Source: Pirellulales bacterium
Lineage (GTDB): Bacteria; Planctomycetota; Planctomycetia; Pirellulales; JADZDJ01
Reading direction: 5' to 3'
Length of the DNA stretch: 64,000 bases
Assembly: GCA_963738835.1 (NCBI GenBank)
Contig: CAVTYH010000001.1
Span: 161,755 to 225,754 of the forward strand
Part shown: positions 17,740 to 24,010 of the stretch, piece by piece
Layout of the letters: every line of letters begins with the position of its first letter
Numbering within the stretch: position 1 is the stretch's first letter
Notes under the pieces: model-generated
The model's input: the letters and a program-made list of their open reading frames with translations, nothing else
Told to the model about the DNA's origin: nothing
The model's database searches: none
Position numbers and translations under genes: made by a program

Positions 17740-17989
17740 TCTCCACGAGCGTTGTCATCGCGGGTGGCCCGACATTTTGTCCGGAAGGCGCGAGCGGCAA
17801 GATAACTGGGGAGATAATACGGGACGAGTTCCCAAGAACTTTTCTCCGTTTGACACCTTTTCTCCGCCTCAAGCATGCTTGCCAACCAGCCGCAAACTAA
17901 AAGGTCCAAGGAATGACCGTCGCCAAAGCATAAAACCGAACGGGATGGCGATATTTCTCAATGGCCATGCTGCCGCACCGTAGTGAAAG

Positions 17990-18048
17990 GGAGGGAAAGA
18001 GGACATTGTACTTATCAGAGAAATTCAGAATGTCCCCCTTTTCTTCCC
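17990..18048. repeat. GGGGACATT/AATGTCCCC palindromic repeat
   Basis: AAAGAGGACATTGTACTT..AAATTCAGAATGTCCCCTTT imperfect inverted repeat. Confidence 0.65.
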
Positions 18049-18049
18049 A

Positions 18050-18175
18050 GAGTTGCGATGGGTCTGCAGCATCCAGTTGTTTCGGTGAATTGCCGACGTA
18101 GCGGTACAGTTTCACGGCGGCGGCGAAACCAACGTGTTTTTCATTTAGCCATTGCCCAACTTCGGGTTGTACGAG
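18050..18175 (-). pseudogene. degenerate Rhs-core C-terminal relic
   Basis: PEVGQWLNEKHVGFAAAVKLYRYVGNSPKQLDAADPSQL resembles the Rhs consensus P..GRW...DPiGf..G..NLYrYv.N.P....DPsGl. Confidence 0.7.
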
Positions 18176-18180
18176 CGGCA

Positions 18181-18234
18181 TGTAGGGCAGTCTCTCCGAG
18201 ACTGCCAGTCGAGTCTCGGAGAGACTCGGCTACA
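18181..18234. repeat. GTAG REP doublet, GTCTCTCCGAGAC family
   Basis: TGTAGGGCAGTCTCTCCGAGACTGCC-AGT-CGAGTCTCGGAGAGACTCGGCTACA. Confidence 0.8.
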
Positions 18235-18301
18235 GCCAGCGTCGGCGGCGAAGCGGCTACGATATTCATCCGTCCCATCGTCCTGCGGCTGCGAATGGGC
18301 G

Positions 18302-18589
18302 ATGCGGATCAGGGGATTCATCGGATATGAGACCAGTCCCGTTTTCTGCCCTCTGGCCATCACCCTAGCCGCCGCCATCATCCCGCGCCTGCAAGGCATT
18401 TTGCTAACGGTCGAGGCTCTGGCCTTCTTCATCATCGCAATGATGCTGCTGCCGAAACTGAAACTGTCGCAATTCATGAGCCCGCTGCCCGCAGGGATGC
18501 GAAGCGGAGGAACGATGCCGGGCACGACACAATCCACGCCGCCAACCTCACCGCCGTTTGACGACACGCCGCCGCCGGGCACTACGTAA
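18302..18589 (+). CDS. possible small membrane protein or gene fragment
   Basis: two hydrophobic segments plus a P/T-rich tail, lying between two REPs. Confidence 0.35.
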   Translation: MRIRGFIGYETSPVFCPLAITLAAAIIPRLQGILLTVEALAFFIIAMMLLPKLKLSQFMSPLPAGMRSGGTMPGTTQSTPPTSPPFDDTPPPGTT

Positions 18590-18739
18590 GCGAGTCTCTC
18601 CGAGACTCGCACGCGGTCCCGGCGCAGCCCGTTGGGGCAACGGATAAACACACCCTCACCGCGTAAAACGCTTGCCCCCTCAAACGCGGTAGGGCAGAAT
18701 GGGGTTCTCGCTTCGTTTTCCGCAGCAAAGGAATCGATC

Positions 18740-19362
18740 ATGCTTAACGTTCACGCTCAGCCAGTCGACACCCGCTGGAATGCTGCTCGCAGAGCCGATC
18801 GGACAATCCATGAAATGCTTGGGCTCGTAAAGGGCATTACTGCCGACGGAGTGGTTACCACAGAAGAAACACTCTCGCTTCGAAATTGGATTATCGCTAA
18901 TCCAGAGGCAGTTCAATCATGGCCGGGCGACGTTCTCTACCGACGCCTTGAGGACATCTTTGCCGACGGCGTCGTTGATGACACGGAGCGAAAGGAATCG
19001 TTCGAGTTTCTCCAAGACGTAACCGGAGAACGGTCATTTATCGAAGATGGAAATTCCGCAACCCGATTGCCACTCGACGCTCCGCCGCCGGCGCTTTTGT
19101 TCGAAGACAGGACATATGTATTCACCGGACGCTTTCTTTTTGGAACCCGTCGCGATGTGAGCAAGCTGTCTGCAAGCGCGGCGGTCTGTGCGAAAGCACG
19201 ATCACAAAACGCACGAACTTCCTAATCATCGGCAACCTTGGCAGCCGCGATTGGATTCACACATCGTTCGGTCGCAAAATTCAAAAGGCGGTGGAATACA
19301 AAAATAAAGGGGCGAGCTTAGCGATCATTGCCGAAGAGCACTGGACGCGTCAGCTAGTATAA
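18740..19362 (+). CDS. TerB-like N-terminal + BRCT-domain protein, frameshift near 19157
   Basis: two ADGVV acidic motifs; YVFTGRF..GTR; the shifted frame continues RGG..ITKRTNFLIIG..GRKIQKAVEY..IIAEEHW to TAA. Confidence 0.8.
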
Positions 19363-19469
19363 TTTCGCCTAACTATGCCTGTTACATCCGGATACCGATC
19401 CAAGGCGAGCGACCTTGTGAATAAGACCTGCCCCGTTTTCATTTAGTTTTCAAGAGATGCGGTAATACT

Positions 19470-20096
19470 ATGGCTCTTCCGACAGCATACCTAACTAGCA
19501 CAAAAAATCTTGAAGGCATTCTTAACGCTATGAAGACGGCGAAGGCGCCGCCTAAATTTAGCCAAGCCTTTCTTGAGTCACTTGAATTTAAGAGCAGCAG
19601 CGACAGGCTGATCATTGGTGTTCTAAAATCGCTCGGTTTTATAAACGAGCAAGGAATTCCTGTTGATCGCTACTTCCAATTCTTAGATCAGACCCAGTCG
19701 GCAAAGGTATTAGCCAAAGGAATCGAGGAAGGATATTCTGATCTTTTTCAAGTAAATACCAAGGCGAATGAACTGCCGAGCACAGAAATCAGGAACAAAT
19801 TAAAGACGCTTACGCAAGGAAAAGTCGGCGATTCAGTTCTCGATAAGATGTCCGCTACCTTTAAAGCATTGTGTGATCTTGCTGACTTTTCTAGCCGGAC
19901 TACTGTTGTGGTCGAACAAGCAAACGTCCCATCGGATCACCCTCTTCAACCACCGCCCGAAACGAAAAAGGATATTCAGAGACAGGTAAGCCTTGGCGGT
20001 CTCGTCTACAACATTCAGATACATCTTCCAGAATCTCGCGACCATGCCGTTTACGATGCGCTTTTTCGAAGTCTACGAGAACATTTACTCGAATGA
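19470..20096 (+). CDS. DUF5343-like winged-helix protein
   Basis: APPKFSQAFL..LEFKSSSDR..VLKSLGFI..G.P..RY..F; C-terminal YNIQIHLPES..YDALF. Confidence 0.75.
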   Translation: MALPTAYLTSTKNLEGILNAMKTAKAPPKFSQAFLESLEFKSSSDRLIIGVLKSLGFINEQGIPVDRYFQFLDQTQSAKVLAKGIEEGYSDLFQVNTKANELPSTEIRNKLKTLTQGKVGDSVLDKMSATFKALCDLADFSSRTTVVVEQANVPSDHPLQPPPETKKDIQRQVSLGGLVYNIQIHLPESRDHAVYDALFRSLREHLLE

Positions 20097-20674
20097 ATAA
20101 CGCCGATCAATTTTATGCTTTTGTCTTCAGAGGCTTGCTGTCCGAGGAAGCACTAGATTCAGCGGGGCGGACATTTCCATCAGTTGCCGCGAATTTGGAC
20201 CCTAGTGTTCAGGCCAAATTGTCGCTGGGCTCGCTTGATGAAGATTTTGTTGCGAAGGCGAATCGCATGGCGGTCGTATACACTGCTATAGCTGCCTTTG
20301 AGAATGGCACGCGGAAACTTGTTGAAAAAGTGCTAGTCGAAGCCCACGGAATCGATTGGTGGTCGACAAAAGTTTCTCAGAAGATCCGAGACAAGGCAGA
20401 AAACCGAAAAGTCGAAGAAGAAAAGTTTAAGTGGCACACGCCGAGAGGCGAGTCGCCAATTCACTATACCGATTTCGGTGAACTCGCAAATATTATTAGA
20501 CAGAATTGGGCGGATTTTGAGCCACACGTTCCATCTCTTGAATGGGTAGACAGTGTCTTCGATATCATCGAAAGATCGAGAAATGTAATAATGCACAGTG
20601 GACAGCTCGCGGAGCGAGACGTTGAGCGTGTCGGCATCAATATAAGAGACTGGGTTGCCCAAGTTGGTGCATAA
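20093..20674 (+). CDS. Swt1-family HEPN putative RNase
   Basis: FEN..R..V, DWW, YTDFGEL..II..NW..F and the RNVIMH (RxxxxH) motif; ATGA overlap with the upstream gene. Confidence 0.85.
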   Translation: MNNADQFYAFVFRGLLSEEALDSAGRTFPSVAANLDPSVQAKLSLGSLDEDFVAKANRMAVVYTAIAAFENGTRKLVEKVLVEAHGIDWWSTKVSQKIRDKAENRKVEEEKFKWHTPRGESPIHYTDFGELANIIRQNWADFEPHVPSLEWVDSVFDIIERSRNVIMHSGQLAERDVERVGINIRDWVAQVGA

Positions 20675-20763: not shown

Positions 20764-21294
20764 TCATTCAATCGCGGGCCGTTTCCGGCGATTGATTTCT
20801 GAAATCAGCAGCATCGAAGCTAGGCCGTAGCACAGCATCCAAAAGCCGCTGAAGGAGCGGAATTCGTAGCCGCAGGCTCGTTGGTATTCTGCGGCGGTGA
20901 TTTGGCGGATCGCTCGGCCGTGGCTGGCAATGGAGTACGTGCCATCGGCTTCATGTCGTGGGCCGCCGAGGCCGCAAACGAACTGGAAAGCCGCGATGTC
21001 GAAGACAGCGTTAATGAACAGCAGGATAGCCAGCCAACGCATCCACCTGGGGGCGTGGGCTACTAAAGCACGCCATCGGAACTGCAGTTCGGTTGGTCTT
21101 CCCGGGAGGGTAAACATCGCCGCAATGAGAACGACGAACATGCCGACGTGCAAAATCAGAGCGAAGTACGGCCACACCTGTTGAGTATCGAAACCGAAGA
21201 AGCTGCCGAAATGCGCGGCGGTGCTCACGGCAAAACCCAGTCCAGCCAGCAGGGCGAAAATCTTGACACCAATTGTTGGCAGGGCGCGTTTCAT
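20764..21294 (-). CDS. 4-TM membrane hypothetical protein
   Basis: four hydrophobic segments. Confidence 0.65.
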   Translation of the reverse strand: MKRALPTIGVKIFALLAGLGFAVSTAAHFGSFFGFDTQQVWPYFALILHVGMFVVLIAAMFTLPGRPTELQFRWRALVAHAPRWMRWLAILLFINAVFDIAAFQFVCGLGGPRHEADGTYSIASHGRAIRQITAAEYQRACGYEFRSFSGFWMLCYGLASMLLISEINRRKRPAIE

Positions 21295-21370
21295 GCCACC
21301 AGAATAACGCAACAATGCGGTAGGGTTCAAATCTTGTTTTTTGTGGGTAGTGGATTAGTTTGGTTTGCAA

Positions 21371-21426
21371 GTGTAGCCCTCACGCTCCGCGTGAGGGATT
21401 CTTCACGCAGAGCGTGAAGACTACAC
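21371..21426. repeat. GTAG REP doublet
   Basis: GTGTAG-CCCTCACGCTCCGCGTGAGGG-AT-TCTTCACGCAGAGCGTGAAGA-CTACAC. Confidence 0.85.
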
Positions 21427-21574
21427 TCAGACTGGCCCACCACCTTTTTGTGCGCGATAGGCTACGTGTCTCCGTGGTAGAAAATCCTCCCGCCTAGCCT
21501 GGAATGGCCCTTGACTTTGAATCGTATGTACACTAGTATACGGATTGGAGCTTAGTAGGCGGTAGGCGGCAGCA

Positions 21575-21610
21575 CCCTCACCCCGGCCCTCTCTCAAAGG
21601 GCGAGGGGAG
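21575..21610. repeat. CCCTCACCCC palindromic repeat, second copy
   Basis: matches 7942-7977. Confidence 0.75.

Positions 21611-22483: not shown

Positions 22484-24010
<1,527 letters not shown>

Follow-up and report, generated by a model that had tools for sequence, protein, structure and literature searches.

Two small genes, here named A and B, lie next to each other on the same strand of a 64,000-nucleotide stretch of the genome of a Pirellulales bacterium (contig CAVTYH010000001.1, positions 161,755 to 225,754), which is referred to below as the window. In the list of open reading frames (ORFs) of the window both genes are intact. They share four nucleotides, the ATGA in which A stops and B starts, as had been pointed out in the original prediction for this locus (Table 1). 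The product of A belongs to the family DUF5343 (E-value 1.7e-44, residues 7–143), and the product of B belongs to the family HEPN_Swt1 (E-value 1.2e-10, 42.1 bits against a cut-off of 27.5, residues 65–192). Both matches lie above the Pfam cut-offs, which confirms the predicted assignment of the pair to DUF5343 and Swt1-HEPN. The Pfam scan of B at E ≤ 1 additionally gave a weak match to RiboL-PSP, and Abi_2 was not listed in it. No NCBIfam model was found for A or B.

The pair had originally been described as a system that was not recognised under any name and might be novel. The comparison with PADLOC-DB v2 led to a different result. The A protein matches the profile PDC-M34A with an E-value of 3e-78 (residues 1–206, profile positions 1–207 of 208), and the B protein matches PDC-M34B with an E-value of 6.3e-77 (residues 1–192, profile positions 1–191 of 192). 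A match to an already described system had been named in the original prediction as a refutation of novelty, and by this criterion the claim of novelty fails. Judged by these end-to-end profile matches, the locus is an instance of the catalogued candidate defence system PDC-M34, which makes it real but not new. The composition of the two is identical: the same two components are present over their full length and stand adjacent on one strand. The PDC collection comprises 145 single-gene and multi-gene phage defence candidates, which were derived by guilt-by-embedding from BREX, DISARM and Type I restriction–modification (R-M) loci, added to PADLOC and explicitly left untested, as described by Payne et al. 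(bioRxiv 10.1101/2024.01.29.577857). PDC-M34 is not discussed in the main text of that preprint. PDC-M34 comes from genes embedded in such systems, whereas the pair in the window stands alone; a homologous pair in another locus (L057) is embedded. The literature search returned no paper naming PDC-M34, DUF5343 or PF17278, and for Swt1 together with HEPN it returned nothing relevant beyond Anantharaman et al. 2013. PDC-M34 is not mentioned in the accessible parts of the papers that test or analyse other PDCs. No solved structure of either component was found.

Table 1. Features of the A–B locus and its surroundings (positions in the window)
Feature	Position	Strand	Description
Intergenic region upstream of A	19363..19469	+	holds GCCTAAC at 19367-19373, a weakly recurrent 7-mer
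Gene A	19470..20096	+	208 aa; DUF5343 / PDC-M34A; ORF, Pfam PF17278, PADLOC PDLC04589
A, domain	19470..19898	+	residues 1-143; helical, two-lobe, first lobe winged-helix-like; AlphaFold2 pLDDT 80-92
A, linker	19899..19991	+	residues 144-174; Pro-rich, variable, disordered; low pLDDT and low column identity
A, tail	19992..20093	+	residues 175-208; conserved strand-helix, LGGLVYNIQIHLPESRDHAVYDALFRSLREHLLE; column conservation
ATGA overlap, A stop/B start	20093..20096	+	4 nt; translational coupling
Gene B	20093..20674	+	193 aa; Swt1/Abi2-clade HEPN / PDC-M34B; Pfam PF18731, PADLOC PDLC04592
B, N-terminal extension	20093..20236	+	residues 1-48; YxFxFRGLLxEEALDxxGR; outside the Pfam HEPN model
B, HEPN Rx4H motif	20579..20596	+	RNVIMH, R163-H168
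Dispersed repeats	~17852-18578 and ~21329-21878		copies elsewhere in own genome and in relatives
16S rRNA gene	22484-24002	+	complete, bacterial, 1501 bits; 1.8 kb downstream of the pair

Architecture of the two proteins

The B protein carries the features of the HEPN superfamily. Among 57 distinct full A–B pairs (identical copies removed) the residues E70, E160, S162, R163, N164, I166, M167, H168 and G170 are invariant. The observation that the second gene keeps the RxxxxH motif of HEPN proteins is thus correct, with R163, N164 and H168 present in 57 of 57 pairs. The AlphaFold2 model of B (predicted local distance difference test score, pLDDT, of 87) shows an all-helical HEPN fold. The N-terminal extension of the protein is less well modelled (pLDDT 54–75). 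It contains the invariant residues Y8, F10, G14, L16, L21, D22 and R26, and no Pfam family was found for residues 1–48 even at E ≤ 10.

The best match of B among solved folds is PbAbiF (8vz6_B), an AbiF HEPN toxin bound to its RNA, with a Z score of 8.8, a root-mean-square deviation of 4.0 and 138 aligned residues. It is followed by a Cas nuclease (Z 7.0), Csm6 (Z 6.6), HEPN domain proteins (Z 6.0–6.2) and the C-terminal domain of yeast Swt1 (Z 5.4). In a review (PMC13064643) AbiF is presented as a toxin with a partner RNA, encoded upstream, that blocks its active site, and Abi2 and Swt1-like HEPN proteins are placed in one group in the classification of Anantharaman et al. 2013. The AbiF/AbiD (Abi2) systems, which are abortive-infection systems of the type III toxin–antitoxin (TA) class, resemble the predicted A–B arrangement in that an HEPN RNase toxin is controlled by a partner encoded just upstream. 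They differ in the nature of this partner, which is a non-coding RNA in AbiF/AbiD and a 208-residue protein here. Furthermore, B is assigned by Pfam to HEPN_Swt1 and not to Abi_2, and with 193 residues it is shorter than the AbiF chain of 297 residues. The search for an upstream RNA antitoxin with Rfam at gathering scores found only the 16S rRNA in the window, and an uncurated RNA would be missed by it. The element upstream of B is a conserved protein-coding gene, A.

Small HEPN RNases with an Rx4-6H motif are also found in two-gene operons with an upstream gene for a neutralising protein, as in HEPN-MNT (HepT-MntA) and other HEPN type II and type VII TA systems. In contrast to the partner in HEPN-MNT, A is not a nucleotidyltransferase, and DUF5343 is the only family given for it by Pfam. 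Toxins of the HEPN-MNT type score lower as folds for B (5yep, Z 5.6; 8xdj, Z 5.2).

Gene A encodes a protein of three parts. In the AlphaFold2 model (mean pLDDT 76.5) a helical body formed by residues 1–143 is followed by a segment with pLDDT below 50 (residues 144–181) and by a helix at residues 192–207. The original prediction had described a winged-helix-like body, a linker and a short terminal strand-helix. The body, the linker and the tail helix are supported by the model, whereas the predicted strand of the tail, YNIQIHL, is not formed in the monomer.

Residues 11–77 of A align in VIA-align with many MarR-type winged helices (Z 4.4–5.5). The best match for the whole domain is the FokI recognition domain (Z 6.2, 142 residues aligned), followed by 3bhw_B (Z 5.9, 136 residues), BrxA 7zge_A (Z 5.5, 135 residues), SspB (Z 5.4, 139 residues) and N.BspD6I (Z 5.3). 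All of these scores are below Z 8, and values of 5–6 are in the range which the tool calls common; the matches are therefore a fold hint towards nucleic-acid binding and not a sign of family membership. The two-lobe helical winged-helix arrangement of BrxA, a BREX protein, and of the FokI recognition domain aligns with residues 1–145 of A, but the identity is 7–11%, which amounts to no sequence similarity, and neither protein has the linker and the tail. No BrxA match for A was found in Pfam or PADLOC. The Foldseek search of the Protein Data Bank (PDB) gave no match at E ≤ 1e-3 for the A or B model, searching the PDB sequences by profile (A1, A2 and A3) gave nothing meaningful, and the ESM Atlas search with A gave no usable match.

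The linker and the tail of A differ sharply in conservation. Across the 57 distinct full pairs the column identity is 0.18–0.25 in the linker and 0.78–0.85 in the tail, which is as conserved as the domain. The tail has a 33-residue consensus, LGGLVYNIQIxLPESRDxAVYDALFRSLRxHLL, with L178, Y180, I182, L186, P187, V194, Y195, F199 and H205 invariant in 30 sequences. Four versions of the isolated tail were searched against Pfam, and no family was found even at E ≤ 10. The tail may resemble the first strand and helix of the ribbon-helix-helix fold. The linker is 30–50 residues long in 44 of the 57 distinct pairs, namely those in which both anchor motifs were matched. Two cluster representatives, P0382 (447 residues) and P0384 (556 residues), have an Ala/Pro-rich linker of approximately 270–380 residues, compared with about 30 in the protein studied here, while their N-terminal domain and tail are unchanged. 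The linker would behave as a tether, because its length ranges from 30 to approximately 380 residues while both of its ends are conserved. Type II antitoxins typically consist of a folded domain of nucleic-acid-binding type, to which a disordered stretch and, at the C-terminus, a short conserved element are added. By analogy, A appears to resemble such an antitoxin in its general layout. In one further protein, P0300 (391 residues), a single reading frame seems to run from the end of an ABC-ATPase/TOPRIM-type protein into a partial DUF5343 domain and the tail; either the fusion is genuine or gene calling has produced the join.

Pairing, distribution and genomic context

The conservation of the pair was assessed in 85 sequences containing A, which comprise 80 metagenomic, three genomic and one viral locus as well as the window itself. 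Only three genomic loci were obtained, as the genome collection was scanned with a single protein and not with the alignment. At least 300 nucleotides are available after the stop codon of A in 73 of the sequences, and in 70 of these 73 informative loci an in-frame B gene directly follows A. Two loci, L066 and L072, show only out-of-frame pieces of B after A. The only informative locus without B is L085 (9944-11680). There A is immediately followed by an insertion sequence (IS) transposase with rve and HTH_21 domains, encoded on the other strand, which gives the impression that an insertion has cost the locus its B gene. The four-nucleotide overlap between A and B is present in 58 of the 70 loci and in 47 of the 57 distinct full pairs. 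The pair is a small bicistronic operon in which the gene in the antitoxin position comes first and the translation of the genes is coupled, an arrangement that is used as a criterion for type II TA systems. At E ≤ 1e-3, 2616 homologues of A and 2301 homologues of B were found. Within the best 120 homologues the identity is approximately 55–75% for each protein, and judging from the few names given they come from many phyla. Other pairs do not have the same flanking genes conserved next to them; the A–B cassette is self-contained. The predicted complex of A and B, computed with alignments as input, scored 0.21 and 0.00 against a mark of 0.32, which is no evidence either way. The top pairs in the mutual information between the two proteins are not concentrated in the tail of A or the N-terminus of B, with 57 pairs forming too small a data set.

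DUF5343 is distributed sporadically. It was detected in 7 of 401 genomes sampled from the phylum. In a set of 31 relatives it was found only in the genome under study, and not in the one genome of the same genus, the 10 of the same family or the 20 of the same order. B is a single-copy gene in its own genome. Such a distribution is typical of accessory cassettes that move horizontally. The base composition of the pair is also different from that of its surroundings. The GC content of the cassette is 0.462, which is 9 percentage points lower than the 0.556 of the window, so that the observation of genes richer in AT than their flanks holds. The cassette is the stretch of 1205 nucleotides with the lowest GC content within the 64 kb, with 0.4% of the sliding windows being equally low. 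At the third codon position its GC content is 0.42–0.47, compared with 0.56–0.67 in six other genes of the window.

The genomic context of the pair was compared in 31 loci, in which up to five ORFs of at least 90 residues on each side were searched with the PADLOC models. At E ≤ 1e-5, 33 of 245 neighbouring ORFs in 15 of the 31 loci gave a match. A crude control of the 58 other ORFs of the window gave 6 matches, all of them to partial domains. At E ≤ 1e-30 the counts were 13 of 245 and 0 of 58, respectively, with an estimated p of about 0.06. The enrichment of homologues in defence islands, which had been proposed as a check, is therefore not significant; with 31 loci and one control of 58 ORFs the comparison is too small to decide. 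This result agrees with a remark in Payne et al. (bioRxiv 10.1101/2024.01.29.577857) on embedded candidates, whose association with other systems is described there as lower. The viral collection contained one locus only, beside a serine recombinase.

Several single contexts point to defence, and at this level the association is anecdotal. In L057 the pair is located between the specificity gene hsdS and the methylase gene hsdM of a Type I R-M operon. Neighbours at other loci include SspA/SspD (Ssp/Dnd), a type IIG enzyme, PD-T4-6-type Ser/Thr kinases, a TIR protein, an Mrr_N protein, SIR2 and ABC-ATPase candidates. On two unrelated metagenomic contigs, L031 (1510-2612) and L042 (4964-6108), genes for an HTH_31 protein and an IrrE-like Peptidase_M78 protein with matches to capH and capP in PADLOC are located directly upstream on the same strand. 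These CapH/CapP-like genes hint at a damage-responsive transcriptional control of the pair in some hosts. The neighbourhood of the pair in the window contains no defence gene: no R-M, BREX or DISARM gene is present among the 58 ORFs, and the pair is solo. A DUF1559 protein, which we take to be a Planctomycetota-style gene, is encoded among the neighbouring genes.

Three A-like proteins from the phylum sample have partners other than B. The distant proteins of L013, L015 and L017 still match PDC-M34A (E-values 6e-48, 7e-15 and 1e-14), and their downstream partners give no match to PDC-M34B. The strand-helix tail is kept in all three and also in P0313, P0332, P0357 and P0392. In L013 (10034-11163, genome G162) the PDC-M34A-like gene is followed by a gene for a 180-residue partner from a separate large family (P0393-P0512). 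This family has 1346 homologues with an invariant RNExAH, an HEPN-like motif, and its precomputed Pfam accession is given as PF27235. Homology between this partner and B is not detectable (hhalign probability 0.13), the partner was not found on viral contigs, and only one close copy is present in the 401 phylum genomes. The L013 pairing may be an uncatalogued sister system. In L017 (392-4148, G215) the partner of the distant DUF5343 protein has a sub-threshold match to DUF4145, and a SIR2-domain protein is encoded upstream. In L015 (10019-13108, G062) the partner ORF of the distant DUF5343 gene is apparently frameshifted and lies between a fragment of a DrmA-like ATPase gene and a type II methylase gene.

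The search for regulatory elements upstream of A gave one recurrent word, GCCTAAC. In either orientation it is present in 9 of 68 distinct upstream regions, which makes it the most widespread word upstream of A; in 200 shuffles every 7-mer stayed below a count of 9. Apart from the window it occurs in L027, L032, L035, L055, L056, L058, L064 and L065. A looser 10-mer was not above chance (16 of 68 regions against a shuffle maximum of 14), and otherwise the operator search gave only Shine-Dalgarno words. The region before A yielded no convincing sigma-70 site. GCCTAAC is a possible cis-element, too rare for a general operator.

The dispersed repeats on both sides of the cassette are short and belong to several families, some of them partly palindromic (for example 18181-18234, 21369-21438 and 21569-21607). 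Many copies of them, with 80–95% identity, are spread over this genome and over others from its family and order. The description of the patch as repeat-bounded is correct in so far as dispersed repeats stand on both sides; no direct or inverted repeat pair that would bracket both genes as an insertion scar was found at the locus. The patch between the repeats also contains a gene with a changing frame (18737-19362, plus strand), located directly upstream of A, and a gene for a membrane protein on the opposite strand (20764-21330). Neither of them was found beside another A–B pair in the loci compared. In the former the frame changes at approximately 19138-19150, whereas the homologous genes of L101 and L102, two same-family genomes, are read in a single frame throughout. 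Either the gene has become a pseudogene by a frameshift or the assembly contains an error at this point. No Pfam family was found for either piece of it, and the first impression of a BRCT domain at its end had no Pfam support and was dropped. No empty site was found. The borders of the insertion could not be set, because the genome of the same genus shares only the 16S rRNA gene and its leader with the window. This 16S gene stands alone, with no 23S, 5S or tRNA gene found in the 64 kb, 40 kb of which are downstream of it, and looks like an unlinked rRNA gene.

Proposed function and alternative readings

We propose that this instance of PDC-M34 is a self-contained, horizontally acquired abortive-infection module of the TA type, a reading to which we give a probability of about one half. 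The full-length PDC-M34 matches, the intact catalytic residues and AbiF-like fold of B, the obligate pairing, the antitoxin-like shape and tether-like linker of A, the self-containment and accessory distribution of the cassette and some defence contexts speak for it. It is the same reading as the candidate anti-phage or toxin–antitoxin system of the original prediction, to which the PDC-M34 matches add a catalogue entry. According to this proposal, A would be made first from the shared transcript and B by coupled translation. The A protein would combine a nucleic-acid-binding domain of tandem winged-helix-like type with a flexible tether and the short strand-helix tail, and its winged-helix domain would act as a sensor, an autorepressor or both. 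B is predicted to be an HEPN endoribonuclease of the Swt1/Abi2 clade with R163, N164 and H168 intact. A would hold B inactive, most likely through contact with the tail. A change during infection, either the binding of foreign nucleic acid or protein by the domain of A or the loss of a labile A protein, would free the RNase. Active B would then cut cellular or phage RNA and stop growth, by which phage protection may be conferred. The proposal draws on the analogy with AbiF, where an upstream RNA blocks the HEPN site, as the upstream protein would do here.

Several points weigh against it. The literature search found no experiment on the DUF5343–HEPN family. The fold matches of A are weak (Z 5–6), which leaves DNA binding by A an unproven fold hint. 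The control of a dimeric RNase by its partner, put forward in the original prediction, stays an inference, as do the contact of the tail with B and the dimerisation of B. The enrichment of defence genes near the pair is not established, given 33 of 245 neighbours against 6 of 58 control ORFs and p of about 0.06 at the stricter threshold, and 16 of the 31 loci as well as the window itself show no defence neighbour. No universal operator was found, since GCCTAAC is restricted to 9 of the 68 upstream regions. The rarity of the pair on viral contigs, with one locus, neither supports nor excludes a role in defence.

The pair may alternatively be a plain type II TA module for addiction or stress, in which A is a labile antitoxin and autorepressor and B an RNase toxin, forming a selfish cassette without phage protection. 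The border between TA and abortive-infection modules is blurred, so that this alternative differs from the proposed module in biological role and not in chemistry. It shares the antitoxin-first order, the four-nucleotide overlap and the disordered region in A with the proposed module, and it fits the 16 of 31 loci without a defence-like neighbour and the non-significant enrichment. The IS beside A in L085, a recombinase by the pair in L018 and a zeta-toxin-like kinase in L002 suggest mobile or TA-rich neighbourhoods. We nevertheless regard a plain TA role as unlikely, as the family was picked up by guilt-by-embedding, the pair is found inside a Type I R-M operon in L057, and CapH/CapP-like regulators stand directly upstream in two loci. 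A could also be a targeting adaptor instead of an inhibitor. Its winged helix would bind nucleic acid, for example foreign DNA, and its tail would carry B on the tether, so that the RNase cuts nascent transcripts nearby, with B alone being harmless or inactive. The folds matched by the whole domain of A are DNA-recognition modules from restriction and defence proteins (FokI, BrxA, SspB and N.BspD6I, Z 5.3–6.2 over 135–142 residues), a linker of up to approximately 380 residues with conserved ends suits a tether that reaches and cuts, and A-like proteins with different partners keep the tail. However, the Z scores are low, and inhibition would account just as well for the tight stoichiometric coupling and for the N-terminal extension conserved in B. 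We regard the adaptor as distinctly improbable.

The 16S rRNA gene downstream of the pair raises the question of whether A and B are a housekeeping RNA-processing pair tied to this gene. Eukaryotes have certain HEPN proteins, Las1 among them, that process rRNA, in line with the account of Anantharaman et al. 2013. In view of the distribution this role is very unlikely: a search of 30 relatives, the same genus included, gave no DUF5343 in any of them, and in the genome of the same genus the 16S gene is retained together with its leader although the pair is not there. Furthermore, the GC content of the pair is foreign, the opposite-strand gene and the dispersed repeats separate it from the 16S gene, and the other loci were neither selected for nor noted to have rRNA nearby.

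A broader and more tentative idea, which we consider rather doubtful, goes beyond the abortive-infection module proposed for the window. DUF5343 proteins might be modular tethered regulators of RNase effectors, with a sensor of tandem winged-helix type at one end, a tail at the other and an entropic linker between them. The tail would dock on the conserved N-terminal extension of the effector. One and the same A module would then serve two or more kinds of effector, namely the HEPN protein of PDC-M34 and, outside the catalogued system, at least the large partner family with 1346 homologues and an invariant RNExAH. In this view A would do as a protein what the antitoxin RNA does in AbiF systems.

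For the window itself the significance of the finding is small, as the locus is a textbook-looking instance of a catalogued candidate, and the additions made here, the anatomy of A and the alternative partners of A-like proteins, are modest. The family is large, with approximately 2600 homologues of A and 2300 of B at E ≤ 1e-3, and extends over many phyla at 50–60% identity. Work at the bench would give substance to what is so far an entry in a database, and from it one would learn how an HEPN RNase of the AbiF kind would be controlled by a protein in place of an RNA.

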